Sequence record: PV245933.1
Length of the DNA: 39,625 nt
Origin: Escherichia phage nasanit
Direction: 5' to 3' (one strand)
The position numbers and the translations under genes are program-made. Shown here piece after piece: positions 3,477-37,649 of the stretch. Within the stretch, counting starts at the first letter, position 1. Each line of letters starts with the position of its first letter. The notes beneath the pieces are model-generated. The model was not told the DNA's origin. It made no database searches and saw nothing but the letters and a program-made list of their open reading frames with translations.

Positions 3477-3499
3477 TAATACGACTCACTATTGGGAAG
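3477..3499 (+). promoter_or_regulatory. Phage RNAP promoter (phiOR position)
   Basis: TAATACGACTCACTATTGGGAAG; matches T7 promoter core except T at -1. Confidence 0.8.
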
Positions 3500-3655
3500 G
3501 GCACCCTAAGACAACTTAAAGACACTTAAAGACTGCATATGCAAAGTGCATACTTAGTGACTACTCTTAGAGACCCTTACAGTGTGGGATGATAGTAATT
3601 GTAATTACATCCCTACTATCAGTGTAACCATCAAGTATAACAAGGAGGACGCTCT

Positions 3656-3811
3656 ATGCGCTTACTATCCGTGCTCAAGACACTGGCAACGCATCGAGTG
3701 ACCTACAAATTTCTCGCTGTACTTGCTGCTTCCATCGGTCTCGCATCTAGTGTTGAACACATCGGTGAACTGGAGACTCTGCTTTGTTCTCTACTCACTT
3801 GTGTTCCTTAG
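3656..3811 (+). CDS. 19.5: gp19.5-like small protein (51 aa)
   Basis: ORF MRLLSVLKTLATHRVTYKF... with AAGGAGG SD; last gene before genome right end as in T7. Confidence 0.6.
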   Translation: MRLLSVLKTLATHRVTYKFLAVLAASIGLASSVEHIGELETLLCSLLTCVP

Positions 3812-3839
3812 ACTGCTCGTTGGCGCTTAACGCGCTCTT

Positions 3840-3877
3840 AGTGATTATGGTCGATATACATCTTCCCTATAATCACT
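3840..3877. repeat. Inverted repeat (9-bp arms AGTGATTAT / ATAATCACT) near genome right end
   Basis: Perfect 9-bp arms separated by 20 nt, read directly from sequence. Confidence 0.5.
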
Positions 3878-4084
3878 GTAAGAAGTCAACTCTAAGAGGT
3901 AGCCTTATGTATTCCTTAACGGTCTACAGGGTCTCTTAGGGTCTCTCACGTGGTCTAACCTTATGATAGCCACTCCAAGGATAACCTTATGAGAGACTTG
4001 ATGTACCCCTTTAAGAATCCTACAGAAAAATCTGAGTGGGTATCTCATAGTTCATACCAAGTGGTTTCCCCCTGTAGGTAACTC

Positions 4085-4187
4085 TGTGGATAACCTGAGG
4101 ATAACTCTGTGGATAACTTGTGGATAACTCTAGGTTAGAGGCTGTGTGGATAACTTTGGGTGAGACTGTTAGTAACTCTGTGGATAA
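4085..4187 (+). repeat. Array of five perfect TGTGGATAA 9-mers (complement TTATCCACA = consensus DnaA box) plus one imperfect copy
   Basis: Perfect copies at 4085, 4108, 4119, 4145, 4179; TGAGGATAA at 4096; all in the same orientation. Confidence 0.6.
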
Positions 4188-4207
4188 CTCTGTGTCTCTG
4201 TGTCCCT

Positions 4208-4214
4208 ATCTGTA
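4208..4214 (+). promoter_or_regulatory. Candidate phage-RNAP pause site (concatemer-junction type), ATCTGTA
   Basis: CCCTATCTGTAAG resembles the T7 class II pause/termination signal ATCTGTT at the T7 concatemer junction; one mismatch. Confidence 0.3.
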
Positions 4215-4366
4215 AGTGACCTTTGAGTTATCACCTTATGTTATCACCTTATGACCCTTTAAGTATCACCTTATGGCTGGTTATCCTTATGTTAACCTTC
4301 AGTCGGTGCCTTCAGTCCATAGACCTATCGTTGCCACTCTTAGACCAGCCTTAAATACCATACAGC

Positions 4367-4389
4367 TAATATGACTCACTATTGAGGAA
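4367..4389 (+). promoter_or_regulatory. Phage RNAP promoter (phiOL position), variant
   Basis: TAATATGACTCACTATTGAGGAA; degenerate relative to the other copies. Confidence 0.65.
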
Positions 4390-4472
4390 TAGCTAATACT
4401 GGTCATCTTCCTTATAGGGATAACTTAAAGACTACTAAAAGAGATACTTTGAGAATTCTTTAAGATTGAGTA

Positions 4473-4501
4473 TTGACATTGATAATAGCTTATGAGACTA
4501 T
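4473..4501 (+). promoter_or_regulatory. Sigma70-type early promoter (A1-like)
   Basis: TTGACA, 17-nt spacer, GACTAT. Confidence 0.5.
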
Positions 4502-4607
4502 AGCAACCGTTGAGAGACACAACGCTACCAACCACTAGACAAGACCGAGAGTTATCTAGTGAGGCTGAAGAGTCTCAAGTAGTCATCAACCAGACACACG
4601 AAAGTGG

Positions 4608-4636
4608 TTGACTCAACGAAAGCAATAACGTAGTAT
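4608..4636 (+). promoter_or_regulatory. Sigma70-type early promoter (additional)
   Basis: TTGACT, 17-nt spacer, TAGTAT. Confidence 0.45.
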
Positions 4637-4697
4637 AGCAGTCGTCAACAACTGGTCGCCCTCTGAAACAACATGAGGTGTCACGGTGAGAAAGGTG

Positions 4698-4727
4698 TTG
4701 ACAAGCAGTAAAGATAAGATGTAAGAT
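4698..4727 (+). promoter_or_regulatory. Sigma70-type early promoter (A2-like)
   Basis: TTGACA, 18-nt spacer, TAAGAT. Confidence 0.55.
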
Positions 4728-4857
4728 GTACGACATGCAATAAGAGAGAACGGATAGGAACTGCGAAACCTGCCGGATACTCGCCAAGGATGAGGCACTG
4801 CTTATTGGAGTATGCAGACACGATAAGCACCACGTTATCTTCTAGTCAAATTAAGTG

Positions 4858-4886
4858 TTGACACGGTAACGAAAGCACGATAAGAT
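4858..4886 (+). promoter_or_regulatory. Sigma70-type early promoter (A3-like)
   Basis: TTGACA, 17-nt spacer, TAAGAT; downstream sequence GTACCAC..AGTGAGTCACCACACTGAAAGGTGATGCGGTCTAACGAAACCTGACC resembles T7 A3 region. Confidence 0.55.
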
Positions 4887-5004
4887 GTACCACGAAATGA
4901 CGGAACAGTGAGTCACCACACTGAAAGGTGATGCGGTCTAACGAAACCTGACCAAAGACGCTCTTTAACAATCTGGATAATAGCTCTTGAGTGTACCGTA
5001 TAAG

Positions 5005-5050
5005 CGAATAACTCAAGGTCGCACTGAAAGCGTGGCCTTTATGATATTCA
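5005..5050 (+). promoter_or_regulatory. Conserved processing hairpin (RNase III site-like, R0.3 position)
   Basis: ATAACTCAAGGTCGCACTGAAAGCGTGGCCTTTATGATATTCA. Confidence 0.45.
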
Positions 5051-5079
5051 CTTAACGAACTAACATGAGGTAACACCTA

Positions 5080-5538
5080 ATGATTTTCACTAAAGAGCCT
5101 GCTAATGTCTTCTATGTACTGGTGTCAGCTTTCCGTTCCAACCTCGACGATGAGGTGAATATGAGTCGTCACCGCCACATGGTAAGCACTTTACGTGCCG
5201 CACCGGGTCTTTATGGCTCCGTTGAGTCAACCGATTTGACCGGGTGCTATCGTGAGGCAATCGCAAGCGCACCGACTGAGGAAAAAACGGTTCGTGTACG
5301 CTGCAAGGACAAGGCGCAGGCACTCAATGTTGCACGCTTAGCTTGCAATGAGTGGGAGCAAGATTGCGTACTGGTATACAAATCACAGACTCACACGGCT
5401 GGTCTGGTGTACGCTAAAGGAATCGACGGTTACAAGGCTGAACGTCTGCCGGGTAGCTTCCAAGAAGTGCCTAAAGGCGCACCGCTTCAAGGTTGCTTTA
5501 CGATTGATGAGTTCGGTCGCCGCTGGCAAGTACAGTAA
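5080..5538 (+). CDS. 0.3: S-adenosylmethionine-cleaving enzyme (T3 gene 0.3-type SAM hydrolase/lyase), anti-restriction
   Basis: 152 aa starting MIFTKEPANVFYVLVSAF; matches my recollection of T3 gp0.3 (152 aa), not T7 Ocr (117 aa, acidic). Confidence 0.8.
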   Translation: MIFTKEPANVFYVLVSAFRSNLDDEVNMSRHRHMVSTLRAAPGLYGSVESTDLTGCYREAIASAPTEEKTVRVRCKDKAQALNVARLACNEWEQDCVLVYKSQTHTAGLVYAKGIDGYKAERLPGSFQEVPKGAPLQGCFTIDEFGRRWQVQ

Positions 5539-5540
5539 GT

Positions 5541-5585
5541 GATAAACTCAAGGTCGCTCAATATGAGTGGCCTTTCATGATTATC
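5541..5585 (+). promoter_or_regulatory. Conserved processing hairpin (RNase III site-like)
   Basis: GATAAACTCAAGGTCGCTCAATATGAGTGGCCTTTCATGATTATC. Confidence 0.45.
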
Positions 5586-5611
5586 ATTTAACATGCAATA
5601 GGACTAACACC

Positions 5612-5812: not shown

Positions 5813-5859
5813 TGGCGCGATTTGCACGCACTGGACAATAGCCTTTTAGTCTAACCAGT

Positions 5860-5905
5860 GATAAACTCAAGGTCGCTCCTAGCGAGTGGCCTTTCATGAT
5901 TATCA
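5860..5905 (+). promoter_or_regulatory. Conserved processing hairpin (RNase III site-like), near-identical duplicate of 5541-5585
   Basis: GATAAACTCAAGGTCGCTCCTAGCGAGTGGCCTTTCATGATTATC. Confidence 0.45.
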
Positions 5906-5933
5906 CTTTGAAACAACGCACGGGATTAATATC

Positions 5934-7277: not shown

Positions 7278-7322
7278 GGTGTATCTTCAAGGTCGGCACT
7301 GACTGCTGGCCTTTATAGATAA
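7278..7322 (+). promoter_or_regulatory. Conserved processing hairpin (RNase III site-like, R1 position)
   Basis: TCTTCAAGGTCGGCACTGACTGCTGGCCTTTATAGATAAAC. Confidence 0.45.
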
Positions 7323-7347: not shown

Positions 7348-9999
7348 ATGACTAACGTAATCAACGCACCAAAGAACGACTTCTCTGACATCGCTAACGC
7401 AATCATGCCGTACAACATTCTGGCTGACCATTACGGTGCACAGCTTGCAGCTACGCAGTTACAGCTTGAGCACGAAGCGCACACTGAGGGTGAGAAGCGT
7501 TTTCTTAAGGCAATGGAACGTCAAATCAAAGCGGGTGAGTTCGGTGATAACGCAGTGGCTAAACCGCTCCTGTCATCTCTCGCACCGAAGTTTATCGAGG
7601 CGTGGAACACTTGGTTCACTGAAGTGGAAGCGAAGCGTGGCAAGCGTCCAGTGGCTTACAATCTGGTACAGAAGGTTGCACCTGAAGCTGCTGCATTCAT
7701 CACACTGAAGGTCACGCTGGCTTGCTTGACGAAAGAAGAGTTCACCAACCTGCAATCGGTCGCTACTAAGATTGGTCGTAGCATTGAAGATGAACTGCGT
7801 TTTGGTCGCATCCGTGACGAAGAAGCGAAGCACTTTAAGAACCACGTACAGGAGGCACTGAACAAGCGCGTTGGCATCGTCTACAAGAAAGCATTCATGC
7901 AAGCCGTAGAGGGTAAGATGCTTGATGCTGGTCAACTGCAAACCAAGTGGACTACATGGACACCTGAAGAATCAATTCACGTTGGTGTGCGCATGTTGGA
8001 ACTGCTCATCGGGTCTACTGGTCTCGTTGAGTTACACCGCCCGTTCGCTGGGAACATCGAGAAGGATGGCGAGTACATCCAGTTAACAGAACAATATGTA
8101 GACCTGCTGTCTAAACGTGCTGGTGCACTGGCTGCAATCGCTCCGATGTATCAGCCTTGCGTGGTCCCTCCGAAGCCTTGGACTTCTCCGGTTGGTGGTG
8201 GCTATTGGGCGGCTGGTCGCAAGCCTCTCTCTCTGGTTCGTACTGGTAGCAAGAAGGGACTGGAACGTTACAACGATGTGTACATGCCTGAAGTTTACAA
8301 GGCGGTGAACATCGCACAGAATACTCCTTGGAAGATTAACAAGAAGGTTCTGGCAGTGGTCAACGAGATTGTGAACTGGAAGCATTGCCCGGTTGAAGAT
8401 GTACCTGCTCTCGAACGTGGTGAACTGCCTGTCAAACCTGAAGACATCGACACGAACGAAGCGGCTCTGAAAGCGTGGAAGAAAGCGGCCTCCGCAATCT
8501 ATCGCAAAGAGAAAGCACGAGTTTCTCGCCGCATGAGCATGGAGTTCATGTTAGGTCAGGCCAATAAGTTCGCACAGTTCAAAGCTATCTGGTTCCCAAT
8601 GAACATGGACTGGCGCGGTCGTGTGTATGCTGTGCCGATGTTTAACCCGCAAGGCAACGACATGACCAAAGGCTTGTTGACGCTCGCTAAAGGTAAACCA
8701 ATCGGTGTCGATGGGTACTACTGGCTGAAGATTCACGGTGCTAACACTGCTGGCGTGGACAAGGTGGACTTTGCAGAACGCATCAAGTTCATTGATGACA
8801 ACCATGAGAACATCATGAGCGTAGCTGCTGACCCGATTGCTAACACTTGGTGGGCCGAGCAAGACTCTCCGTTCTGCTTCCTCGCGTTCTGCTTCGAGTA
8901 TGCAGGAGTCCAGCACCACGGGATGAACTACAACTGCTCTCTTCCGCTGGCGTTTGATGGTAGCTGCTCCGGTATTCAGCACTTCTCCGCAATGCTTCGT
9001 GATGAAATTGGTGGTCGCGCTGTTAACTTACTGCCGAGCAAGGAAGTCCAAGACATCTACCGCATCGTAGCGGAACGTGTCAACGAGATTCTGAACCAAG
9101 ATGTTATCAACGGGACCGACAACGAAGTAGAGACCGTGACCAACAAGGACACAGGGGAAATCACTGAGAAGCTCAAGCTGGGTACTAAAGAACTAGCTGG
9201 TCAGTGGCTGGCCTACGGTGTGACCCGCAAGGTCACTAAGCGTTCGGTTATGACGTTGGCTTACGGTTCCAAAGAGTACGGATTCCGTGACCAAGTTCTT
9301 GAGGATACCATTCAGCCAGCTATCGACGATGGCAAGGGCTTGATGTTCACTCAACCGAACCAAGCGGCTGGCTATATGGCTAAACTGATTTGGAACGCGG
9401 TAACGGTGACAGTGGTCGCAGCGGTTGAAGCAATGAACTGGCTGAAGTCTGCGGCTAAACTTCTAGCTGCTGAAGTCAAGGACAAGAAGACCAAAGAGGT
9501 TCTCCGCAAGCGCTGCGCGGTACATTGGGTTACTCCTGATGGCTTCCCGGTCTGGCAGGAATACAAGAAGCCAGTACAGACCCGCTTGAACCTGATGTTC
9601 TTAGGCCAGATTCGTCTACAGCCTACCGTGAACACCAACAAGGATAGCGGAATTGATGCTCGTAAGCAGGAGTCAGGCATCGCACCTAACTTTGTCCACT
9701 CAATGGATGGAAGCCACCTGCGCATGACTGTGGTCCGCTCCAATGAGGTCTACGGTGTGGAATCGTTCGCACTGATTCACGACTCCTTTGGTACTATCCC
9801 TGCTGATGCTGGCAACCTGTTTAAAGCAGTGCGCGAAACGATGGTCAACACTTACGAAGAGAACGATGTACTAGCAGACTTCTATGAGCAATTTGCTGAC
9901 CAGTTACATGAATCACAGCTTGACAAGATGCCTGAGATGCCAGCTAAAGGTTCTCTGGACCTGCAAGAAATCCTTAAGTCAGACTTTGCGTTTGCCTAA
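7348..9999 (+). CDS. 1: Single-subunit DNA-dependent RNA polymerase, gp1
   Basis: 883 aa (same length as T7 RNAP); C-terminal ...SDFAFA; specificity loop PTVNTNKDSGIDARKQESGIAPNFVHS retains Asn at the T7 N748-equivalent position. Confidence 0.97.
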   Translation: MTNVINAPKNDFSDIANAIMPYNILADHYGAQLAATQLQLEHEAHTEGEKRFLKAMERQIKAGEFGDNAVAKPLLSSLAPKFIEAWNTWFTEVEAKRGKRPVAYNLVQKVAPEAAAFITLKVTLACLTKEEFTNLQSVATKIGRSIEDELRFGRIRDEEAKHFKNHVQEALNKRVGIVYKKAFMQAVEGKMLDAGQLQTKWTTWTPEESIHVGVRMLELLIGSTGLVELHRPFAGNIEKDGEYIQLTEQYVDLLSKRAGALAAIAPMYQPCVVPPKPWTSPVGGGYWAAGRKPLSLVRTGSKKGLERYNDVYMPEVYKAVNIAQNTPWKINKKVLAVVNEIVNWKHCPVEDVPALERGELPVKPEDIDTNEAALKAWKKAASAIYRKEKARVSRRMSMEFMLGQANKFAQFKAIWFPMNMDWRGRVYAVPMFNPQGNDMTKGLLTLAKGKPIGVDGYYWLKIHGANTAGVDKVDFAERIKFIDDNHENIMSVAADPIANTWWAEQDSPFCFLAFCFEYAGVQHHGMNYNCSLPLAFDGSCSGIQHFSAMLRDEIGGRAVNLLPSKEVQDIYRIVAERVNEILNQDVINGTDNEVETVTNKDTGEITEKLKLGTKELAGQWLAYGVTRKVTKRSVMTLAYGSKEYGFRDQVLEDTIQPAIDDGKGLMFTQPNQAAGYMAKLIWNAVTVTVVAAVEAMNWLKSAAKLLAAEVKDKKTKEVLRKRCAVHWVTPDGFPVWQEYKKPVQTRLNLMFLGQIRLQPTVNTNKDSGIDARKQESGIAPNFVHSMDGSHLRMTVVRSNEVYGVESFALIHDSFGTIPADAGNLFKAVRETMVNTYEENDVLADFYEQFADQLHESQLDKMPEMPAKGSLDLQEILKSDFAFA

Positions 10000-10006: not shown

Positions 10007-10029
10007 TAATACGACTCACTATTGGGAGA
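10007..10029 (+). promoter_or_regulatory. Phage RNAP promoter (phi1.1A position)
   Basis: TAATACGACTCACTATTGGGAGA. Confidence 0.8.
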
Positions 10030-10090: not shown

Positions 10091-10648
10091 ATGTTTACTT
10101 TCATCACTTCAGTAGGCGCTCTCGTAGCAACCATTCTTGCAGCAACATACTACAACCGTTCAAAGGTATTTCTCACCAAGCTAATCAAAGAAGAGAAGAA
10201 CTCTCACGCACTCAAAGAGAGACTTGAAGATGGGTGGCGAGAGAGGCAGGAACTAGCTGGTCGAATCCGTACTTTAGAGTTCGAACAACAATATGACATG
10301 TCGAACCAACGAGAACTCATTGAGCGTCTACGCGCTGAGGCAATGGAGTACCGCAAGGAACTTAAAGAGGCAAAGAGTACCATCCGTGAGTACACATACA
10401 GTGACATCACGTCTATCAAGTTTACTGCTCACATCCCGGATGCTGGATGGAAGCGCACTGAGTTCAAGCTAGGCATAGGGTCTTGCGGCAAAGAGGTTAC
10501 GTGTTTGCACTGGAAAGAACAGTCGGACCGCTACCTGCTGACACAGACGTGCACTGATGGTGAGCGCAAAGAGTTCACCTATTATAAGAAAGACGTAGCT
10601 GGTCGCATTGAGATTGCACGTAAGGTTGCAGACAATACGACTCACTAA
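10091..10648 (+). CDS. Hypothetical membrane-anchored protein, 185 aa (gene 1.05 position)
   Basis: Start MFTFITSVGALVATILAATYY (TM helix) after AAGAGGA SD; coiled-coil-like middle; Cys-containing C-terminus; track start 10022 rejected (no SD, inside promoter leader). Confidence 0.6.
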   Translation: MFTFITSVGALVATILAATYYNRSKVFLTKLIKEEKNSHALKERLEDGWRERQELAGRIRTLEFEQQYDMSNQRELIERLRAEAMEYRKELKEAKSTIREYTYSDITSIKFTAHIPDAGWKRTEFKLGIGSCGKEVTCLHWKEQSDRYLLTQTCTDGERKEFTYYKKDVAGRIEIARKVADNTTH

Positions 10649-10655
10649 TGGGAAA
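10633..10655 (+). promoter_or_regulatory. Phage RNAP promoter (phi1.1B position), overlaps 3' end of the preceding ORF
   Basis: CAATACGACTCACTAATGGGAAA. Confidence 0.75.
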
Positions 10656-10887: not shown

Positions 10888-11159
10888 TGGGTCGCTTATA
10901 CAGTGGTAACTTAATAGCATACAAAGACGCTATCGAACGGCTTAAAGAAGACCACGATGCAAATGTGGTCGTTGAGACTTATCGCTATGAGGACTTCACA
11001 CAGCGACGGATGGTCGCCGGAGAGACACTTCGAGTGGTCTTACGGGATGGCTTAATGCTGACCGCTAAGTGTTTCGAACAGGACGACGAAGACGTTCGTT
11101 GCAATGCACAGACTGAATGGCTTCGTAAGGTACACAACGACCTGAAGCACTGGAAGTAA
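10887..11159 (+). CDS. 1.2: gp1.2-like protein (host dGTPase inhibitor in T7)
   Basis: 90 aa starting MGRLYSGNL, ending ...DLKHWK, as in T7 gp1.2. Confidence 0.8.
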   Translation: MGRLYSGNLIAYKDAIERLKEDHDANVVVETYRYEDFTQRRMVAGETLRVVLRDGLMLTAKCFEQDDEDVRCNAQTEWLRKVHNDLKHWK

Positions 11160-11179
11160 TACGACTCACTATTGCGAGA
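11157..11179 (+). promoter_or_regulatory. Phage RNAP promoter (phi1.3 position)
   Basis: TAATACGACTCACTATTGCGAGA, overlapping the 1.2 stop codon. Confidence 0.75.
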
Positions 11180-12486: not shown

Positions 12487-12520
12487 GGTCAGTCCTTAAC
12501 GGGCTGGCCTTTTTGTGTTT
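12487..12520 (+). terminator. Intrinsic terminator (early terminator TE position)
   Basis: RNA hairpin GGUCAGUCC-UUAAC-GGGCUGGCC (G-U wobbles) followed by UUUUUGUGUUU. Confidence 0.6.
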
Positions 12521-12543
12521 CTATACGACTCACTATGGAGGAA
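12521..12543 (+). promoter_or_regulatory. Phage RNAP promoter (phi1.5 position), variant
   Basis: CTATACGACTCACTATGGAGGA. Confidence 0.6.
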
Positions 12544-12550: not shown

Positions 12551-12631
12551 ATGCTATTTCTAATTGCTGCTGCTATCTTTGCCACGTTTGCCTTCGTTAT
12601 CATTGACGACAACTGCTGGCCGGATTGCTAA
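12551..12631 (+). CDS. Possible 26-aa hydrophobic peptide (gene 1.5 position)
   Basis: MLFLIAAAIFATFAFVIIDDNCWPDC; GGAGGA SD; very short, weak evidence. Confidence 0.25.
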   Translation: MLFLIAAAIFATFAFVIIDDNCWPDC

Positions 12632-12651
12632 TACGACTCACCTATGGAGGA
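12629..12651 (+). promoter_or_regulatory. Phage RNAP promoter (phi1.6 position), variant
   Basis: TAATACGACTCACCTATGGAGGA. Confidence 0.55.
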
Positions 12652-13324: not shown

Positions 13325-13512
13325 GCACTCTGAATAAAGGGTCACTGGTAAACGGTGACAAGAAGTTCTTCGCTACGGTAGAAGGCCAAGGCCAATCGTT
13401 CGAAGTACCTGTGTTCGCTACGTCTCTTGAAGAGGCCAATGAGTTAGCTGAGTGGCAATACGTCCCTGCTGGCTTCGCTGTAACACGCATCCGTCCAGAC
13501 CGTAAGGTTTAA
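13321..13512 (+). CDS. 2: Inhibitor of host RNA polymerase, gp2
   Basis: 63 aa; ...[33 protein letters not shown] very close to T7 Gp2. Confidence 0.9.
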
Positions 13513-13532
13513 TAGGACTCACTAATGGGAGA
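13510..13532 (+). promoter_or_regulatory. Phage RNAP promoter (phi2.5 position)
   Basis: TAATAGGACTCACTAATGGGAGA. Confidence 0.7.
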
Positions 13533-15189: not shown

Positions 15190-15282
15190 ATGATGGTTAT
15201 CCACGAGATGGGTCTGTACGATTTGATTTATCGCCTCGCGTTCATGCTGGCAATGGTCTACATTCTTACCCGCAAGGATTAA
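15190..15282 (+). CDS. Possible 30-aa hydrophobic peptide
   Basis: MMVIHEMGLYDLIYRLAFMLAMVYILTRKD; short, weak evidence. Confidence 0.3.
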   Translation: MMVIHEMGLYDLIYRLAFMLAMVYILTRKD

Positions 15283-15301
15283 TAGAACTCACTATGGGAG
15301 A
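15280..15301 (+). promoter_or_regulatory. Phage RNAP promoter (phi3.8 position), variant
   Basis: TTAATAGAACTCACTATGGGAGAG followed by 5' hairpin GGGAGAG..TCTCCC. Confidence 0.65.
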
Positions 15302-15352
15302 GCCGAAAGGTTTCTCCCTTTGTTCGCTAAAATTGTATAAGGAGTAATCACT

Positions 15353-17306: not shown

Positions 17307-17329
17307 CAATACAACTCACTAATGGGACA
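17307..17329 (+). promoter_or_regulatory. Phage RNAP promoter (phi4.3 position), variant
   Basis: CAATACAACTCACTAATGGGACA. Confidence 0.65.
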
Positions 17330-18138: not shown

Positions 18139-18162
18139 TCTATTCAACTCACTAATGGGAGA
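18139..18162 (+). promoter_or_regulatory. Phage RNAP promoter (phi4.7 position), variant
   Basis: TCTATTCAACTCACTAATGGGAGA. Confidence 0.6.
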
Positions 18163-22228: not shown

Positions 22229-22251
22229 CAATACGACTCACTATTGAGAGG
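22229..22251 (+). promoter_or_regulatory. Phage RNAP promoter (phi6.5 position)
   Basis: CAATACGACTCACTATTGAGAGG. Confidence 0.75.
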
Positions 22252-23229: not shown

Positions 23230-24837
23230 ATGGCAAGCTCACAGAAACGTGAAGGCTTCGCGGAGAATGGTGCCAAGGCGGTGTATGACGCATTGAAGAA
23301 CGACCGGAACTCCTATGAGACCCGTGCGGAAAACTGTGCGAAGTACACCATCCCTTCGTTGTTCCCTAAAGACTCCGACAACGCCTCTACTGACTACACC
23401 ACTCCGTGGCAAGCAGTTGGCGCTCGTGGCTTGAACAACTTGGCCTCTAAGCTCATGCTCGCTCTGTTCCCTATGCAGACGTGGATGAAGCTGACCATCT
23501 CTGAGTTCGAAGCGAAACAATTGGTTGCACAGCCAGCCGAACTAGCGAAGGTCGAAGAAGGTCTCTCAATGGTCGAGCGAATCTTGATGAACTACATCGA
23601 GTCCAACTCGTACCGTGTGACACTCTTTGAGACCCTCAAGCAGTTGGTCGTTGCAGGTAACGCTCTGCTCTACATTCCTGAACCTGAAGGTGCTTACAAT
23701 CCGATGAAGCTATACCGACTGTCTTCTTATGTTGTCCAACGAGACGCATTCGGCACGGTGCTACAGATTGTAACCTTAGATAAGACTGCCTATGCAGCAC
23801 TTCCAGAAGACGTTCGAAACTCTATGGACTCCGGTCAGGAACATAAAGGCGACGAAATGATTGATGTGTACACTCACATTTATCTTGACGAAGAATCTGG
23901 TGAGTACCTCAAGTACGAAGAGATTGATGGTGTTGAAGTCGATGGTACAGATGCTTCTTATCCGGTGGACGCTTGTCCTTATATCCCGGTTCGCATGGTA
24001 CGCATTGATGGAGAATCATATGGTCGTTCTTACTGTGAGGAATACTTAGGTGACTTACGGTCCCTTGAGAACCTCCAAGAAGCTATCGTTAAGATGTCAA
24101 TGATTAGTGCTAAAGTTATTGGCTTGGTTAACCCGGCTGGTATCACACAGGTTCGTCGTTTGACCAAAGCACAGACTGGTGACTTCGTGTCTGGTCGTCC
24201 AGAAGACATCTCGTTCCTTCAGCTTGAAAAGGCCGCAGACTTCTCTGTAGCGAAAGCTGTGAGTGAACAGATTGAGGGCCGACTGTCCTATGCCTTTATG
24301 TTGAACTCCGCTGTGCAACGCACTGGTGAGCGTGTGACTGCCGAAGAGATTCGATATGTTGCATCTGAACTCGAAGATACCCTTGGTGGTGTCTATTCGA
24401 TTCTCTCACAGGAACTTCAGTTGCCAATGGTTCGTGTCCTGCTGAAGCAACTTCAAGCGACCAATCAGATTCCTGAGCTACCGAAAGAGGCCGTTGAGCC
24501 TACTATCAGTACCGGGATGGAAGCATTGGGTCGTGGTCAAGACCTCGATAAGCTGGAGCGTTGTATTGCTGCTTGGTCTGCTCTTGCTCCTATGCAGAAT
24601 GACCCGGACATCAACATTGCGACCATTAAGTTGCGCATTGCGAACGCTATCGGCATCGACACTTCTGGTATCCTCAAGACACCTGAAGAGAAACAACAGG
24701 AGATGGCTGAGGCTGCTCAAGGAACTGCACTGGAGAACGCTGCTGCATCTGCTGGTGCTGGTGCTGGTGCACTTGCTACTGCAAGCCCTGAGAACATGCA
24801 AGCGGCTGCTGAACAGGCTGGAATGGTTCCAAATTAA
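23230..24837 (+). CDS. 8: Head-to-tail connector (portal) protein, gp8
   Basis: 535 aa (T7 is 536); AAGGAGG SD. Confidence 0.96.
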   Translation: MASSQKREGFAENGAKAVYDALKNDRNSYETRAENCAKYTIPSLFPKDSDNASTDYTTPWQAVGARGLNNLASKLMLALFPMQTWMKLTISEFEAKQLVAQPAELAKVEEGLSMVERILMNYIESNSYRVTLFETLKQLVVAGNALLYIPEPEGAYNPMKLYRLSSYVVQRDAFGTVLQIVTLDKTAYAALPEDVRNSMDSGQEHKGDEMIDVYTHIYLDEESGEYLKYEEIDGVEVDGTDASYPVDACPYIPVRMVRIDGESYGRSYCEEYLGDLRSLENLQEAIVKMSMISAKVIGLVNPAGITQVRRLTKAQTGDFVSGRPEDISFLQLEKAADFSVAKAVSEQIEGRLSYAFMLNSAVQRTGERVTAEEIRYVASELEDTLGGVYSILSQELQLPMVRVLLKQLQATNQIPELPKEAVEPTISTGMEALGRGQDLDKLERCIAAWSALAPMQNDPDINIATIKLRIANAIGIDTSGILKTPEEKQQEMAEAAQGTALENAAASAGAGAGALATASPENMQAAAEQAGMVPN

Positions 24838-24857
24838 TACGACTCACTAATGGGAGA
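24835..24857 (+). promoter_or_regulatory. Phage RNAP promoter (phi9 position)
   Basis: TAATACGACTCACTAATGGGAGA overlapping gene 8 stop. Confidence 0.8.
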
Positions 24858-25828: not shown

Positions 25829-25851
25829 TAATACGACTCACTATTGGGAGA
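25829..25851 (+). promoter_or_regulatory. Phage RNAP promoter (phi10 position), consensus copy
   Basis: TAATACGACTCACTATTGGGAGA. Confidence 0.85.
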
Positions 25852-27209: not shown

Positions 27210-27248
27210 AACCCCTTGGGTGCCTTCACGGGTGCTTGAGGGGTTTTT
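27210..27248 (+). terminator. Intrinsic terminator (T-phi position)
   Basis: AACCCCTTGGGTGCCTTCACGGGTGCTTGAGGGGTTTTTT; GC-rich hairpin plus U-tract, very similar to T7 T-phi. Confidence 0.8.
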
Positions 27249-27269
27249 TCGCTACAAGGAGACACACTT

Positions 27270-30288: not shown

Positions 30289-30311
30289 CAATACGACTCA
30301 CTATTGGGAAG
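30289..30311 (+). promoter_or_regulatory. Phage RNAP promoter (phi13 position)
   Basis: CAATACGACTCACTATTGGGAAG. Confidence 0.8.
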
Positions 30312-30339
30312 GGGGTTTATACTTAAAGGGAGAAACTCT

Positions 30340-30753: not shown

Positions 30754-30755
30754 CT

Positions 30756-31361
30756 ATGTGCTGGATGGCTGCAATCCCTATCGCTATGCAAGGCGCTTCC
30801 ATGATTATGGGAGGTATGCAGGGTGAACAGGCAAAGGCCGCACAGATTGACCAAGGTCGTCGCCAAAGTTGGCAGATGGTAAAGGAGATGAATTATAACG
30901 ATGCTAATCTCAAGTTAGAATCGCGTGACCTCATTGACTCCACTGTACAGGAGATGACCCAAGCGAATATGAACCGTGTGAGAAACATGGGGACTATCCG
31001 AGCGGCAATCGGTGAAGGGATGCTTGAGGGTAACTCTATGGACCGCGTACAGCGCGTGACCGAGGGTGACTTCCTTCGAGAGTCTCAAGGTCTCACTGAG
31101 AACTACCAACGTGACTACAGTGTCATCTTAGGGAAGCGTTTAGCTAACCACGAGAACACAGTAAGTCAGATTAAAGAAATCAACAACTCTGAGCCACGGC
31201 TTAAAGGCAAGCTGGAACAAATTATCGACCCATTAGGCTTAGGCTTAACGAAGCTGGTTGATGTTGCAACCGATGGTAGTCCTCTAACCAATAAGTTAGG
31301 TAAGAAGGCCGCTGCTAAGGTCAAGGCTTCAGATGCCAAGTCAACAGGCCAAGGTAAATAA
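30756..31361 (+). CDS. 14: Internal virion protein B, gp14
   Basis: 201 aa; start MCWMAAIPIAMQGASMIMGGMQG. Confidence 0.9.
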   Translation: MCWMAAIPIAMQGASMIMGGMQGEQAKAAQIDQGRRQSWQMVKEMNYNDANLKLESRDLIDSTVQEMTQANMNRVRNMGTIRAAIGEGMLEGNSMDRVQRVTEGDFLRESQGLTENYQRDYSVILGKRLANHENTVSQIKEINNSEPRLKGKLEQIIDPLGLGLTKLVDVATDGSPLTNKLGKKAAAKVKASDAKSTGQGK

Positions 31362-31375
31362 AGGAGGTACAGTTT

Positions 31376-33655
31376 ATGAGTAAGTTAGCTCAAGCATTGG
31401 GTAACATGAACGCTCCGGCTACCAGTCGTCTGCGTGGCACTGGTCGTATGGAAGTTAAGGCCGCAACAGTATACGAAGACCCTAAGTATGCCGAGAAGTC
31501 AAAGCTGATTGGCACTGTAGGTAAACTTGCTGAGATGGGCGCAGATGCTTACATGAAGTATGACCAGTATCAGAAGGATAAAGCAGACGAACGCTCAAAC
31601 GAGATTATTCGTAAGCTGACTCCTGAACAACGCCGAGAGGCCATTAAGAATGGAACCCTATTATATCAGGATGACCCATATGCGATGGAAGCTCTTAAGA
31701 TTAAGACTGGTCGTAACGCTGCGTATCTCGTAGATGACGAAGTGGCACAGAAGGTGAAGAACGGTGAGTTCCGTACTCGTCAAGAGTTGGAAGAGTTCCG
31801 TCACAGCCGACTGCAAGAAGCCGCTAAGAACTATGCGGAACAGTTCGGTATCGACGAGACTGATGAGCACTATCAGAAAGGTTTCAACTCCGACATCACT
31901 GAACGTAACATCGCCCTCTATGGTGCTCATGATAACTTCCTGAGTGACCAAGCTAAGAAGGGCGCTGTCATCAACAGCCGAGTAGAGTTGAACTCTGTGT
32001 TGAACGACCCGGACACTCTGCGTTCTCCCTATGCTGGAGAGTTCTTTGAGAACTACTTCAGTGCCGGATTGACTACAGGAAGTATCCCTAGTGATGACCA
32101 AGCGTTCACCATGATTAGCCAAGGTCTGTCTGACGTGGTTAACCGTGAAGGTGGTGGTCAGTTCCTGAAACAGATTGAGAACCGTAAGGTGAAACTCCAC
32201 GGAAAAGAGACTACCTTCAAGGAACTGATGGGTTCCGAACAGTGGAACAATCTGATGGTTAAGGCTCAACATAATGAGTTCCAGTTGAATGCTAAGAAGA
32301 CCGAGGCGTTCCAACTTAATGTGAACTCTGCGTTGAACCAAGAGAACGTGAACACTGGCTGGGAACAGTTGCAGTCCATCAAGGCTGAACTGGACACACT
32401 GCAACCGGGCGAAGAGATGACACCTGAACGTCAGGCGTTAATCAATGCACAGACGCAGATGCAGGACAGGATGAAGCGGGAGACCGCTGAGTTAGCCAAG
32501 CAGATGGACAAGCAACAGAAGTCGATGAACAAGATGAACGTCATTGACGCACAGTTCCAGAAGCGGCTCAATGGTCAGTATGTGTCTACTGCGTATGGCG
32601 ATATGCCTACCAACGAGAACACTGGTGAGTTCACCCATAGTGACATGGTTAACTATGCGAACAAGAAGCTGGCTGACATTGACGCTATGGACATCCCTGA
32701 TGCACAGAAGGACCGCATGAAGTTGGACTACCTCAAAGCTGACTCCGAGAAGGGTGCTTTCCGTACTGCGGTTGGTGAACTGATTGGTGACGCTGAGAAG
32801 GAATGGACGTCTGCTGTGATTAACGGGAAGATGCCCGAAGATGGTGGAGTGGCACTTAATGCTCTTCGTCGTGTTCGTAATGCTGACCCTGAGTTATTCG
32901 CTGCACTCTATCCTGATAAAGCCGAGATGTTCCTCACGATGGACATGATGGACAACCAAGGGATTGACCCGCAAATCCTGCTGGATGCAGATAAGGCTCG
33001 ACAGTCTCTTACCAAAGAGATGCAGTACGAGGATGACAAGGCTTGGGCTTCGCTGAAGAACAACTCCGAGTCTCCCGAACTGTCCCGTATGCCAGCCACC
33101 TTGGACGCTGGTGCTCGTAAGATTTATGACTCTGTGAAGTACCGTACTGGCAATGCTGATATGGCGATGCAACAGGTCGATAAGTATCTCAAAGAGAACA
33201 CAACGACTCTCACTGGTGATGGTGTTGATGGTGATACCATTGGTGTCTTAACGAGAAACTCCCTGCGTGTGACCGATGACCCGGACTCTTGGAAACAAGG
33301 TAAGGACATTATCGACACAGCCGCTAAGAAACTCGCTGAGACGAACAAGTGGATTACCAACAAGCAACTTACTGTGTTTGAGCGCGGTGGCTCTATCTAC
33401 CTGATGGACACGACCGGACAGGTAAACATTCGGTATGACAAGCAGTTGCTCTCTAAGATGTATCAAGAGAACCAAGCGAAGCTGGATGAGGAAGCCCGTA
33501 ATAAGGCACTCAAAGATGCCAACAAGCGAACCCTACATACACGAGCTATGAACCGCAAGCGTGAACGTGAAGCTAAGAAGCCTAAACGCTCTGGCAGCAT
33601 GTACGATAGCGTAAGTGGCAAAGGTATTCTGGATACGCTGACTGGTAAAGACTAA
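31376..33655 (+). CDS. 15: Internal virion protein C, gp15
   Basis: 759 aa, largely alpha-helical; position and size as T7 gp15. Confidence 0.93.
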   Translation: MSKLAQALGNMNAPATSRLRGTGRMEVKAATVYEDPKYAEKSKLIGTVGKLAEMGADAYMKYDQYQKDKADERSNEIIRKLTPEQRREAIKNGTLLYQDDPYAMEALKIKTGRNAAYLVDDEVAQKVKNGEFRTRQELEEFRHSRLQEAAKNYAEQFGIDETDEHYQKGFNSDITERNIALYGAHDNFLSDQAKKGAVINSRVELNSVLNDPDTLRSPYAGEFFENYFSAGLTTGSIPSDDQAFTMISQGLSDVVNREGGGQFLKQIENRKVKLHGKETTFKELMGSEQWNNLMVKAQHNEFQLNAKKTEAFQLNVNSALNQENVNTGWEQLQSIKAELDTLQPGEEMTPERQALINAQTQMQDRMKRETAELAKQMDKQQKSMNKMNVIDAQFQKRLNGQYVSTAYGDMPTNENTGEFTHSDMVNYANKKLADIDAMDIPDAQKDRMKLDYLKADSEKGAFRTAVGELIGDAEKEWTSAVINGKMPEDGGVALNALRRVRNADPELFAALYPDKAEMFLTMDMMDNQGIDPQILLDADKARQSLTKEMQYEDDKAWASLKNNSESPELSRMPATLDAGARKIYDSVKYRTGNADMAMQQVDKYLKENTTTLTGDGVDGDTIGVLTRNSLRVTDDPDSWKQGKDIIDTAAKKLAETNKWITNKQLTVFERGGSIYLMDTTGQVNIRYDKQLLSKMYQENQAKLDEEARNKALKDANKRTLHTRAMNRKREREAKKPKRSGSMYDSVSGKGILDTLTGKD

Positions 33656-33678
33656 CAGACCACGATAGGAGGTTCCAA

Positions 33679-36600
33679 GTGGATAAGTATAACCCGAACG
33701 AACCGCATGAATATGATGCGTTATTTCAACAAGCTGCTGACACACATGGAGTCTCCTATGGCCTTCTTCGGAAGGTCGGTTGGGTAGAGTCCCGCTTTAA
33801 ACCTACGGCTCAATCACCAACAGGGCCGAGAGGTGTCATGCAGTTCACTAAGGCAACTGGTCAGGCTTATGGTCTCCAGAACGATGAGGACTTCACTGAC
33901 CCGGCTAAGTCCATTGATGCAGGTGCTCGTTACCTCGCAGACCTCGTTAAGAAGTACGATGGCGATGAACTTAAAGCTGCCCTAGCGTACAACCAAGGTG
34001 AAGGGCGTAATGGTAAGCCACAACTGGAAGCCTACGATTCTGGTAACTTTGCTGGCATCGGTGATGAAGGTCGTAACTATCTGCGTTCACTTCTGGATGT
34101 CGCTAAGTCTCCTAAGAGTGGGGACATTGAGTCATTCGGAGGTATCACCCCAAAGGCTAAAGGGATTCCGTTTGATGCTGCGATGAGTGGTATCGGGAAG
34201 AAAGGAAAGGTAACAACTGAACTCCCTGAGTCTCACGAAATGTCCTTTCAAGGTAAAGAACAGGCCGCTCCCAATCAGCCGTTCGGAAAAGATTATTGGG
34301 AAGCCAAAGGTACAACTCTTGACGAAGCAAACGAGCGTTCAACCTTCTTCGGATTTGGTAATGCTGCCGAAGCAGAACTCTCTAACTCAACCTTGGGTGT
34401 TGCCTTCCGTGCTGGTAAGCGTGACAATGGTTTCGATGTTCTTACTGACGTACTTCAGCCGACACGGTTTAATAGCCACATTTGGTCGCCTGAAGAACTC
34501 GAAAAGATTCGCAACGAAGTGAAGAACCCTGCGTACATGAACGTTGTACTTGGTGGTTCCGCTGAGAACCTTGACGAGCTAATCAAGTTAGCCAATGAGA
34601 ACTTCGAGTTGGACTCTAAGGCCGCTGATGCTGGACTTGGTGCAAAACTATCTGCTGGGATTATTGGTGCTGGTGTGGACCCTCTGACCTACGTTCCAAT
34701 CGCTGGGTCTGCGGCTAAGGGATTCAAACTGGTGAACAAGGCGTTGATGGTGGGTGCTCAAGCTGGTGCACTTAACGTTGCCTCCGAGGGTCTGCGTACA
34801 TCCGTTGCTGGTGGTGATGCTCACTATGCGGAAGCTGCTCTTGCTGGTATGCTGCTTGCTGGGGGACTCACTGCGGTTGCTGATGGTGTTGCTGCTGGTC
34901 TCCGTAAGTCTGGTGCTGAACAGATTGAGAACCCGTTTGCTGCTGCGCAGATGCGTTTTGAGGCTCGTGAGACTGCCCGTAACACTGGTGGATATGATGC
35001 AAGTCGTATGCCTCCGAGTGAAGACCGAGTGTTCTCACAGCACAACGGCGTTGAGTATGCACCTCTCGAAACTGAACCGGGTGCGGTAGTTCTGAAGGAC
35101 GGCTCAATCATTAGTGATACCAACTTGGCTAACCCAATGACTGCCAAAGAGTTTGCCGAAGTAGACCCTGAACGTGCTGCATGGGGCTTGCCTATGCGTG
35201 GCCTGAGTGAAATCGGTTTGAGAACTCTACGTTCTGAACATGCAGAAATCCGTGGACTAGCTAAGGACTTAGTGCGCTCACCTACAGGTATGGAGTCTGG
35301 CTCACATGGTAAGTTTGGGGCTACCGCCTCAGACATCAAAGAGCGCCTACACAGTAACAACCAGCGAACCTACAATGACCTCTATGGTGCAATGAAGGAA
35401 GCTATGGCTGACCCTGAGTGGTCTGTGGGTATGTTCAAGCAGGGTGCCCAAGGTGCTCGTCAGGAAATCTATCGTCGTGTTGCAATCGCTATTGAGCGTC
35501 CAGAACTTCAGGCCAACTTAACGAAGGCTGAACGTAAGGTAATGGACATCATGAAGGAACATTTCGACCTCAAGCGTGAGATGATGGAGAACCCGTCGAT
35601 GTTCGGCAACAAGGCAACTTCCATCTTCCCTAACAGTCGTCACAAAGGGACTTACGTTCCTCATGTGTACTCACGGGAAGCCAAGCAGTTGTACTCACAG
35701 GCTCTCGGTGGCTCTGATGGTTTACAGGAAGCAATCGCTGCAAGCTGGATGACCTCTTACCGTTCACGTCCAGAAGTTAAGACTCGTGTGGATGAGCATT
35801 TAGCGGAGACATTAGGTATCGACCCTAAAGCTGTTACCGAAGAGATGGTGATGAAACATGCCAGCGACAAGGCTTATGGTATTGCGAAGACAGATGAGTT
35901 CAACTCTTCAAGTGTCATCGACGATAACATTGAGGGTCTGGTAGGGATTGAGAATAACTCGTTCCTTGAAGCCCGTAACCTGTTCGATTCTGACATGCCA
36001 GTCACGCTCCCGAATGGACAACAGTTCTCTGTGAATGACCTCCGAGACTTCGATATGAAGCATGTGATGCCAGCATATGACCGCCGTGTTGACGGTGATA
36101 TTGCTATCATGGGTGGTACAGGAAAGACGACTGCTGAACTCAAGGATTACATTATGGCTCTCGATAAGAAGTCTGAAGGTAAAGGCACAATGAAAGGTGA
36201 AGTGGAAGCACTCAAGGATACCGTTAAGATTCTCACAGGCCGTGCTCGACGCAATCAGGATACTATGGGTGACACTATGGTCCGCGCTATGTCCGATATG
36301 TCCTTCTTTACGAAGAACGCATATATGGGCTTGCAGAACCTAACTGAAATCTCTGGTCTCTTGGCGAAAGGTAACACCCGTGCGATGCTTCATGGCATTC
36401 CCGCTCTGCGTGACCTAGCATTCCGCAACAAGCCAGTGTCCGGTAAGGAACTTAAGGAACTACACTCTATGGTGTTCGGTAAAGAGTTCGATGACTTAAT
36501 TAGACCGACCCGTCAGGACATCATTCAGCGACTCCGTGAATCTACGGATACACCTGATGTTGCCGCTAAGGTTGTTGGTACGGTTAAGCACACCACTCAA

Positions 36601-37626
36601 GAGTTGGCTGCTCGCTCTCCGTTCACTAAGTTCCTCAATGGTACTTCCAACTACATTCTGGACATGGCCCGTCAAGGTGTCATGGGAGATGTGGTAACTC
36701 ATGCCATTACTGGTAAGGGTGCCAACAAGTGGATTAAAGGAGACATGCTGAAATCTGCGAGTATCTCTAAGGAACAATGGGAAGGCATTCAGAACCTCAT
36801 CCGCGAGAACGTCACTCAAGGCGCTGACGGCAAGTACACCTTCAAGGACAAGCGCAAGCTGGCTAATGACCCTCGTGCTATGGACTTGTGGCGCTTAGCT
36901 GATAAGGTTGCCGATGAGACAATGCTGAGACCTCACAAGGTTTCACTTCAGGATTCCCATGCGTTTGGTGCTGCTGCCAAGCTGGTGCTTCAGTTTAAGT
37001 CGTTTGTCATCAAGTCGATGAACTCTAAGTTTATCCGCTCTGGTCACGAGGCTATGAAGAATCACCGAGCTATGGACATGGCGCTGACCTACGCAATCTC
37101 TGGAGGTATCGCTGGTTCCTACTACGTGGCACAGGCCCACTTGAAGGCTGCTGGTCTACCTAAAGAGCAACAGAAGGACTACTTGAAGAAAGCTCTGGAC
37201 CCTAAGATGATTGCCTATGCTGCTGCGTCCCGAAGTTCACACTTAGGTTCCCCGTTGAGTATCGCAAACTTCGCTATGGGTGCTGCTGGTTACGACCAAG
37301 GTCTCATGGTCCGCTCTACTATTCTCCCGAAAGGTGAGGACAAGCGGGAACGGAATAAGGCGGTAACTTCCCGTGACATGAGTGAATCCATTATGGGTGC
37401 TATTGGTGAACAGGTTCCTGCTCTTGGCTTCGCGGGTGCTGCTCTAGCTACTGGTCGAAATGCTTATGGTGTCCTTACGGCTCCAAACAAAGTGACCGAG
37501 CGTGAGATGATGACTGGCTTAATGAACGCCCACCGAGAGATGATTCCTAACGACCCAATCTCTCAACAGATGCTCATTAAGTTCTATGAGGCCAACGGTG
37601 TTCACATTAAGGCTGACAAGAAGTAA
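33679..37626 (+). CDS. 16: Internal virion protein D with N-terminal lytic transglycosylase domain, gp16
   Basis: 1315 aa; apparent GTG start after AGGAGG SD; SLT-like motif GWVESRF..GVMQFTKATG..AYNQGEG. Confidence 0.95.
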   Translation: MDKYNPNEPHEYDALFQQAADTHGVSYGLLRKVGWVESRFKPTAQSPTGPRGVMQFTKATGQAYGLQNDEDFTDPAKSIDAGARYLADLVKKYDGDELKAALAYNQGEGRNGKPQLEAYDSGNFAGIGDEGRNYLRSLLDVAKSPKSGDIESFGGITPKAKGIPFDAAMSGIGKKGKVTTELPESHEMSFQGKEQAAPNQPFGKDYWEAKGTTLDEANERSTFFGFGNAAEAELSNSTLGVAFRAGKRDNGFDVLTDVLQPTRFNSHIWSPEELEKIRNEVKNPAYMNVVLGGSAENLDELIKLANENFELDSKAADAGLGAKLSAGIIGAGVDPLTYVPIAGSAAKGFKLVNKALMVGAQAGALNVASEGLRTSVAGGDAHYAEAALAGMLLAGGLTAVADGVAAGLRKSGAEQIENPFAAAQMRFEARETARNTGGYDASRMPPSEDRVFSQHNGVEYAPLETEPGAVVLKDGSIISDTNLANPMTAKEFAEVDPERAAWGLPMRGLSEIGLRTLRSEHAEIRGLAKDLVRSPTGMESGSHGKFGATASDIKERLHSNNQRTYNDLYGAMKEAMADPEWSVGMFKQGAQGARQEIYRRVAIAIERPELQANLTKAERKVMDIMKEHFDLKREMMENPSMFGNKATSIFPNSRHKGTYVPHVYSREAKQLYSQALGGSDGLQEAIAASWMTSYRSRPEVKTRVDEHLAETLGIDPKAVTEEMVMKHASDKAYGIAKTDEFNSSSVIDDNIEGLVGIENNSFLEARNLFDSDMPVTLPNGQQFSVNDLRDFDMKHVMPAYDRRVDGDIAIMGGTGKTTAELKDYIMALDKKSEGKGTMKGEVEALKDTVKILTGRARRNQDTMGDTMVRAMSDMSFFTKNAYMGLQNLTEISGLLAKGNTRAMLHGIPALRDLAFRNKPVSGKELKELHSMVFGKEFDDLIRPTRQDIIQRLRESTDTPDVAAKVVGTVKHTTQELAARSPFTKFLNGTSNYILDMARQGVMGDVVTHAITGKGANKWIKGDMLKSASISKEQWEGIQNLIRENVTQGADGKYTFKDKRKLANDPRAMDLWRLADKVADETMLRPHKVSLQDSHAFGAAAKLVLQFKSFVIKSMNSKFIRSGHEAMKNHRAMDMALTYAISGGIAGSYYVAQAHLKAAGLPKEQQKDYLKKALDPKMIAYAAASRSSHLGSPLSIANFAMGAAGYDQGLMVRSTILPKGEDKRERNKAVTSRDMSESIMGAIGEQVPALGFAGAALATGRNAYGVLTAPNKVTEREMMTGLMNAHREMIPNDPISQQMLIKFYEANGVHIKADKK

Positions 37627-37649
37627 ACAATACGACTCACTATTGGGAA
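37627..37649 (+). promoter_or_regulatory. Phage RNAP promoter (phi17 position)
   Basis: CAATACGACTCACTATTGGGAAG followed by 5' hairpin GGGAAGG..CTTCCC. Confidence 0.8.

Follow-up and report, generated by a model that had tools for sequence, protein, structure and literature searches.

The 39,625-base DNA sequence of Escherichia phage nasanit (PV245933.1; the whole stretch is referred to below as the window) contains 16 copies of a 23-bp promoter for the phage RNA polymerase, and these very probably make up the complete middle and late promoter set of a Berlinvirus (a probability of about 0.93 may be attached to this reading). Their consensus, TAATACGACTCACTATTGGGAGA, is identical to that of T7 from -17 to -2 and from +1 to +6. 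The sole systematic difference is a T at -1, which places an A on the template strand, and judging from the genomes compared this T is conserved across the genus, in that part of the promoter which is concerned with melting and initiation. The phage itself belongs, by its sequence, to a third and already named lineage and is no hybrid of T7 and T3.

The promoter set

The sites were found by a mismatch scan, and a weight matrix built from them was then used to score both strands of the window. Exactly 16 sites (-17 to +6) match TAATACGACTCACTATTGGGAGA, all on the plus strand and with scores of 16.2 to 40.5 bits (Table 1). The 17th-best position on either strand of the window scores 5.0 bits, and the weight-matrix scan of the window revealed no hidden promoter on the minus strand. 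The total information of the 16-site alignment is 35.9 bits. The 10-mer CGACTCACTA occurs 10 times compared with 0.06 times expected by shuffling, and the 23-mer with three or fewer mismatches also occurs 10 times, compared with 0.00 expected. Every site is intergenic or lies over the end of a gene, and the leader from promoter to next gene is 13–175 nt, phiOL excepted. A repeated sequence of about 23 bp, on one strand, ahead of gene clusters and accompanied by an intact cognate polymerase gene, is what characterizes Studiervirinae promoters, and all of these features are present.

The base counts in a fixed register (n = 16) are G in all sites at +1, T in 10 and A in six at -2, and T in 14 at -1, the other two (12521 and 15280) having G. 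These counts agree with the consensus, the T or A at -2 and the nearly constant T at -1 proposed in a sequence-only reading of this DNA. The same reading had all copies sharing CGACTCACTA, which is true of only 10 of the 16; the remaining six read TGACTCACTA, GGACTCACTA, GAACTCACTA, CAACTCACTA (twice) and CGACTCACCT, and the block invariant in all 16 is ACTCAC at -10 to -5. The exact consensus is present at two sites, 10007 and 25829. It is also found in 15 contigs of a viral collection, 14 of which are 38.5–40.8 kb in length, as in Berlinvirus isolates, and one of which is a 7.7-kb fragment.

The closest annotated counterpart is phage BA14, whose GenBank record (EU734171) lists 16 phage promoters (phiOL, 1.05, 1.1, 1.3, 1.5, 1.6, 2.5, one without a name ahead of gene 4, 4.3, 4.7, 6.5, 9, 10, 13, 17 and OR). 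The two sets occupy 16 orthologous places; 11 of the 23-mers are identical and five differ by one to four bases. The unnamed 'phi' promoter of BA14, at 10827, is the sequence of the phi3.8 equivalent with the register shifted by one base. With the weight matrix these sites are also recovered from 285P, PZJ0206 and Yersinia phage Berlin. The set also resembles that of T7 (Teseptimavirus), in which 15 of the 16 positions along the genome are represented. The exception is the second promoter after gene 1, which precedes gene 1.1 (phi1.1) and is not at the place of T7 phi1.1B; T7 has the pair phi1.1A and phi1.1B together with phi4c, whereas the window has phi1.05 and phi1.1. The six late promoters of T7 (phi6.5 to phiOR) are mutually identical, unlike those of the window. 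T3 (Teetrevirus) shares the phi1.05/phi1.1 arrangement and gene 1.05 but has no phi1.6, no phi4.7 and no functional phi17, and possesses a phi11.

No promoter-like sequence is present inside gene 4, where the best score is -14 bits, and the site orthologous to T7 phi4c (16545) reads CAAGACAAAGAACTCAAGATGCA, which is not promoter-like. The absence of a promoter from gene 4 had been pointed out from the sequence as a contrast with T7, and to that extent the observation stands. It is no mark of lineage, however, because T3 and BA14 are also without phi4c.

It is improbable that some of the 16 sites are non-functional relics, leaving a working set of fewer than 16. The candidates would be phi1.5, phi1.6 and the phi3.8 equivalent (16–24 bits), along with phiOL; the first three deviate at -4 to -1, in the melting region where spacing matters for the choice of start site. 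Relics that look like promoters do exist, for before gene 17 of T3 (AJ318471, 32757-32779) there stands a promoter that matches the T7 consensus perfectly, has A at -1 and is annotated as not used by the T3 polymerase. Two further points weigh against the full set. The use of each site is deduced from sequence, above all at the three weak ones, and the register of phi1.5 and of the phi3.8 equivalent is ambiguous, as they may be read with G at -1 or with a one-base deletion that leaves T at -1. Nevertheless, the deviant forms recur with hardly a base changed at the corresponding places of BA14, 285P, PZJ0206 and Berlin, and T7 has promoters at the same three places. Moreover, in phi1.5 and phi1.6 the start region (GGAGGA) is also the ribosome-binding site for the gene that follows, whose ATG lies 13 nt further on, as in T7. 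At phi1.5 this gives gene 1.5 a 13-nt leader, and the short form is kept in 285P, PZJ0206 and Berlin; at phi1.6 the GGAGGA serves gene 1.6, whose ATG is at 12659. Indirect support for the use of the sites may be drawn by analogy from the Pectobacterium phage PP74 polymerase, 94% identical, which is active in vitro on the consensus promoter (PMC11475235).

The polymerase and position -1

The cognate enzyme, encoded by gene 1, is 99.8% identical to that of 285P, 99.0% to that of BA14, 94.2% to that of PP74, 76.3% to that of T7 and 75.1% to that of T3. Residues R746, N748, R756, Q758, W422, D537, Y639 and D812 are all kept. Codons at 9562-9657 specify the specificity loop (residues 739-770), that of N748 being at 9589-9591. 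In T7, N748 reads -11/-10, R756 reads -9 and Q758 reads -8 (PMC5937735). The Asn that the sequence-only reading placed at the N748-equivalent position is thus present together with R746, R756 and Q758, and the matching contact residues fit the T7-type recognition of -11/-10 that it proposed.

The promoters are accordingly of T7 type at -12 to -8, which is CGACT, with contact residues as in T7. They are not T7-type in the strict sense of TATA at -4 to -1, since A at -1 is found in 0 of the 16 sites, compared with 16 of the 17 T7 promoters, a count that bears out the description of A at -1 as canonical for T7. Nor are they of T3 type. T3 promoters have ACC at -12 to -10, where the window has CGA, so that the difference claimed for this block is real; they carry A or C at -1, and the T3 polymerase has Asp at the N748 equivalent, where the window has Asn.

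T at -1 is found in 14 of 16 sites in BA14, 14 of 16 in 285P, 15 of 17 in PZJ0206 and 12 of 14 in Berlin, but in only one of 17 in T7 (phi2.5) and none of 14 in T3. In the five Berlinvirus genomes together (the window and these four), A is at -1 in none of 79 promoter sites. Both the upstream promoter half and its reading residues are as in T7, and binding should therefore be T7-like. Most likely, T at -1 would tune initiation by the cognate polymerase and so contribute to separation from T7. In a homologous single-subunit polymerase, an early stage of initiation has the template base at -1 stacked on the +1 pair (PMC10600007), from which it may be supposed that a purine at template -1 could plausibly favour initiation. 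Stacking under the initiating GTP could be better with the template-strand A, and this might account for the high output reported for the PP74 polymerase.

Several observations weigh against such a role in specificity. On the A-1T variant TAATACGACTCACTATTGG, which in a barcoded library gave an RNA/DNA ratio of 73 (one barcode) compared with 153–188 for four wild-type barcodes (PMC5937735, table S2), the T7 polymerase still reaches about 40% of the wild-type value, and phi2.5 of T7 itself naturally has T at -1. Together with the base-contacting residues of the binding region, which are all the same in both polymerases, these data would fit a T at -1 that is a neutral inherited quirk, in which case the Berlinvirus and T7 polymerases would use each other's -1 promoters equally. 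This explanation is possible but somewhat unlikely. It has to account for the complete lack of A at -1 in the 79 sites despite a DNA divergence of 5–20%. It also conflicts with the cross-transcription experiments of Mertens and Hausmann (1982), in which, as summarised in a passage of a 2026 paper, the BA14 polymerase/promoter system was functionally different from those of T7 and T3 (PMC13600099). Finally, the PP74 polymerase gave no measurable output from the non-cognate promoters tested, 'even a single nucleotide change', although the text of that study does not name the promoter to which this phrase refers (PMC11475235).

A stronger proposition is that -1 alone sets the polymerase/promoter pair of Berlinvirus apart from T7 in function. 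The discrimination would then lie in the melting and initiation part and be read outside the specificity loop, because the two systems do not differ in -17 to -5 or in the four residues of the loop that read bases. This proposition is tentative, and the odds are rather against it. Candidate readers of -1, chosen by sequence comparison, would be the changes Q232P, N233F, V236N, G238E and Q239K in the intercalating hairpin, present in all five Berlinvirus polymerases compared (residue 237 is I or V, and V237I in the window), plus Y418M, next to W422, and Q786M, two positions at which T7 and T3 share a residue. Assignment of the reading of -1 to given residues by comparison of genera was considered and rejected, since only one lineage combines T at -1 with G at +1 and the residue differences are therefore confounded with phylogeny; 90 positions are invariant in the Berlinvirus polymerases and differ from a residue common to T7 and T3.

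Genus placement and the gene 0.3 cassette

The window represents a nearly complete T7-like phage genome in circularly permuted form. Genes 17.5–19 lie at 244-3387 and are followed by the right-end promoter, the terminal repeat, the left-end promoter and four host-type promoters, and genes 0.3 to 17 occupy the remainder up to the end of the window. The spacing between phiOR and phiOL, 890 nt, fits that in BA14 minus one copy of the repeat. The single collapsed copy of the terminal repeat shows that a linear genome has been assembled here in circularly permuted form; the linear order is gene 17.5–19, end, start, gene 0.3 ... 17.

Two query halves were compared by megablast with 50,697 phage records. 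The DNA of 3400-25000 shows 94.8% identity with Enterobacter phage PZJ0206 (94% covered), 95.3% with 285P (88%) and 93.0% with BA14 (85%), and that of 25000-39625 is 92–93% identical to BSP161, 285P and BA14. All four of these phages are Berlinvirus according to their records. Identities of 92–95% over 85–100% of the query halves lie well within the ICTV criterion for a genus, a genome-wide DNA identity of 70% or more to its members (as quoted in PMC13600099). The Berlin-type consensus with T at -1, likewise present in BA14, 285P, PZJ0206, Berlin and the 5' region of PP74, is another trait of the genus. By its sequence, then, the phage is one further genome of Berlinvirus (subfamily Studiervirinae). 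None of the 50,697 records is more than about 95% identical over most of the window's length, and no deposited record among them is the same genome; at about 92–95% identity to its nearest relatives the phage probably falls below the 95% species line.

A different lineage had been proposed from the sequence, namely a mosaic in which a T7-type polymerase/promoter system was recombined with a T3-type early region and T at -1 marks the hybrid. The T7-like promoter from -17 to -2, the T7-like specificity loop, and the T3-like layout of gene 1.05 with phi1.05/phi1.1 are in keeping with this, and so is gene 0.3. Its product, a predicted T3-type S-adenosylmethionine (SAM) lyase as the sequence-only reading had recognised, is identical to the T3 enzyme (PDB 7OCK) at 150 of 152 residues and matches Pfam PF23780 with 144.4 bits (cut-off 28). 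T7 has no such gene, its gene 0.3 being ocr. Gene 0.3 is 99% identical in protein and 90.5% in DNA to that of T3, compared with 90% and 79% to the gene 0.3 of BA14, likewise one for a SAM lyase. The surrounding cassette (4844-5588) is 98% identical in DNA to that of Berlinvirus Carena and 91–95% to T3-like phages (95.1% to phiYeO3-12; T3 itself 91.5% by database search and 90.5% by pairwise alignment), whereas it is only 78–87% identical to the corresponding regions of BA14, 285P and PZJ0206.

Genome-wide, on the other hand, the mosaic is very unlikely, and whole-genome comparison gave Berlinvirus and no T7/T3 hybrid. When the proteins of 30-odd genes were compared with those of T7, T3 and four Berlinvirus genomes (BA14, 285P, PZJ0206 and Berlin), the per-gene identities showed no alternating T7-like and T3-like blocks. 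The proteins lie about as far from T7 as from T3 (RNA polymerase 76 and 75%, DNA polymerase 74 and 74%, primase-helicase 69 and 70%, portal 80 and 83%, capsid 77 and 79%, terminase 81 and 80%), and outside 0.3 no gene is markedly nearer to either. Most are more than 90% identical to the four Berlinvirus genomes, the polymerase 97–100%. The polymerases of T7 and T3 share 82.2% identity, more than either has with that of the window, which points to a third lineage. Within the genus the 0.3 slot holds a SAM lyase, ocr (PP74) or no gene (Berlin), and is therefore that of a swappable anti-restriction cassette rather than a lineage-defining trait. What stands of the claim is local: the 0.3 cassette looks, from its sequence, to have been exchanged between genera, with T3-like phages, and mosaicism is real only there. 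The unused T3 promoter before gene 17 is T7-type and not Berlinvirus-type, which indicates that the donor of that T3 segment was T7-like.

Gene 5.5 (20719-21021), of the H-NS inhibitor family, is only 51–59% identical to the BA14, 285P, PZJ0206 and Berlin alleles, with neighbours at 94–99%, and on this comparison it is a second locally replaced host-takeover gene besides 0.3. The structural gene that diverges most is that of the gene 17 tail fibre (37697-39625), which is 89–90% identical to PZJ0206 and 285P, 72% to BA14 and, over half its length, 83% to Berlin; this divergence is compatible with a difference in host range. Between genes 18.5 and 19 there is a 185-aa gene (1057-1614) without a counterpart in T7 or T3 and without a Pfam match, whose sole match is the family of unknown function phrog_20446. 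It is conserved at 94–96% in BA14, 285P and PZJ0206, and partially in Berlin (58% over 59% of its length).

The overall DNA identity to BA14 is about 92–93%, and the terminal repeat of BA14 has different short repeats. The repeat of the window holds, at 4085-4187, five exact copies of TGTGGATAA and a sixth, at 4096, with one mismatch. They are in a single orientation, within 103 bp, and belong to a repeating unit, ACTCTGTGGATAAC, of the collapsed terminal repeat. TGTGGATAA is the reverse complement of the DnaA-box consensus, TTATCCACA, and the copies are candidate DnaA boxes. The rest of the window contains no exact copy, and none is present in BA14, 285P, PZJ0206, T3 or the first 12 kb of PP74, where other short repeats occupy that place. 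The same variant of the repeat (86–93% identity) is found in phages P483, vB_ShiP-A7 and vB_SEqdws-315, and short stretches also match intergenic DNA of several microviruses.

Transcription programme and implications

By homology with T7 and T3, a temporal programme of infection may be proposed. Host RNA polymerase would start at the four sigma-70 promoters, transcribe the early genes, including those of the anti-restriction SAM lyase (0.3), a kinase (0.7) and the phage RNA polymerase (gene 1), and stop at the early terminator TE. The phage polymerase would then bind each 23-bp promoter, its AT-rich recognition loop reading -17 to -13 and its specificity loop (R746, N748, R756 and Q758) reading -11 to -7, melt -4 to -1 and start with G at +1. 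From phi1.05 to phi4.7 the promoters would drive the genes of DNA metabolism, and phi6.5, 9, 10, 13, 17 and OR those of the virion and packaging, with the late terminator Tphi after the capsid gene. TE and Tphi are in the same places as in T7. Three of the sigma-70 promoters were found by a consensus scan and the fourth was read in the sequence; their offsets from phiOL are those of the four host promoters annotated in BA14.

A hairpin-forming element, AACTCAAGGTCGC...GTGGCCTTTATGAT, precedes genes 0.3, 0.6, 0.7 and 1 (5003-5059, 5537-5593, 5857-5908 and about 7285-7320). The first three copies align with a feature of T3 annotated as the RNase III site R4.7, and the hairpins probably serve as sites at which RNase III processes the early transcript.

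Table 1. Promoters and associated features of the window, with the corresponding elements of BA14
Feature	Position	Strand	Sequence or description	Score or support	Relation to BA14
phiOR	3477..3499	+	TAATACGACTCACTATTGGGAAG; after gene 19	38.9 bits	identical to phiOR
Terminal repeat	about 4043-4215	+	single collapsed copy	left-end motif TCTCATAGTTCATAC and junction motif CTCTGTGTCCCTATCTGT, as at the PP74 termini	the two motifs as at the BA14 termini
phiOL	4367..4389	+	TAATATGACTCACTATTGAGGAA	30.9 bits	orthologous to phiOL
Host early promoters (four, sigma-70 type)	4472..4886	+	genes 0.3 to 1	TTGAC(A/T) boxes at 4472, 4608, 4698, 4858	
Gene 0.3	5080..5538	+	predicted T3-type SAM lyase, 152 aa	150/152 identical to PDB 7OCK	
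Gene 1	7348..9999	+	single-subunit RNA polymerase, 883 aa	full-length alignment to T7 RNA polymerase (PDB 1CEZ), E = 0	
phi1.05	10007..10029	+	exact consensus; 8 nt past polymerase gene	40.5 bits	identical to phi1.05
phi1.1	10633..10655	+	CAATACGACTCACTAATGGGAAA	39.1 bits	identical to phi1.1
phi1.3	11157..11179	+	TAATACGACTCACTATTGCGAGA	37.6 bits	one difference from phi1.3
TE	12487..12519	+	early terminator, after ligase gene, just before phi1.5	hairpin and T run; position as in T7 and T3	position as in BA14
phi1.5	12521..12543	+	CTATACGACTCACTATGGAGGAA; G at -1 (fixed register)	24.2 bits	orthologous to phi1.5
phi1.6	12629..12651	+	TAATACGACTCACCTATGGAGGA; deviates at -4 and -3	16.4 bits	identical to phi1.6
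phi2.5	13510..13532	+	TAATAGGACTCACTAATGGGAGA	36.3 bits	identical to phi2.5
phi3.8 equivalent	15280..15302	+	TAATAGAACTCACTATGGGAGAG; before gene 4; G at -1 or one base short	16.2 bits	
phi4.3	17307..17329	+	CAATACAACTCACTAATGGGACA	34.8 bits; identical to 285P site	orthologous to phi4.3
phi4.7	18140..18162	+	CTATTCAACTCACTAATGGGAGA	30.6 bits	identical to phi4.7
phi6.5	22229..22251	+	CAATACGACTCACTATTGAGAGG	37.1 bits	orthologous to phi6.5
phi9	24835..24857	+	TAATACGACTCACTAATGGGAGA	39.8 bits	identical to phi9
phi10	25829..25851	+	exact consensus; ahead of major capsid gene	40.5 bits	identical to phi10
Tphi	27210..27251	+	late terminator, after gene 10: AACCCCTTGGGTGCC-TTCACG-GGTGCTTGAGGGGTT-TTTTCG		position as annotated terminator
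phi13	30289..30311	+	CAATACGACTCACTATTGGGAAG	38.8 bits	identical to phi13
phi17	37628..37650	+	CAATACGACTCACTATTGGGAAG	38.8 bits	identical to phi17

The promoter set, including T at -1, is already annotated or published for Berlinvirus, and the finding, though real, is an ordinary one. The Kvp1 genome paper of 2008 gave logos for the promoters of both Kvp1 and Berlin, and Kvp1 joins Berlin-type promoters with T3-like genes 0.3, 0.6 and 0.7 (PMC2579914). A 2024 study predicted TAATACGACTCACTATTGGGAA, the consensus with its T at -1, as the promoter of PP74, and the PP74 polymerase ('R6') is the experimentally tested member of the group. In a cell-free assay its polymerase/promoter pair was the most active of 26 tested, above T7 polymerase, and the enzyme was selected for recombinant enzyme production (PMC11475235). 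PP74 infects Pectobacterium and carries ocr where the window has the SAM lyase, but its polymerase has the same specificity-loop contacts and intercalating hairpin. The exact 23-mer consensus as a string had no match in the literature searched, and a 16-mer leads to the PP74 paper (PMC11475235); a paper on phage polymerases for in vitro transcription (PMC13029058) contains nothing on Berlinvirus. The pairing of the promoter set and T at -1 with a T3-type gene 0.3 is documented for BA14, Berlin, Kvp1 and PP74, and as one more Berlinvirus genome the window has small discovery value.

The practical value lies in the fact that the Berlinvirus polymerases recognise a promoter one base removed from the standard T7 promoter. 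Cross-recognition at -1 bears on their use as an independent expression system and on which residues read the initiation region. If -1 alone did separate the two systems, it would offer a second, unexploited route to mutually independent expression systems of the T7 family.

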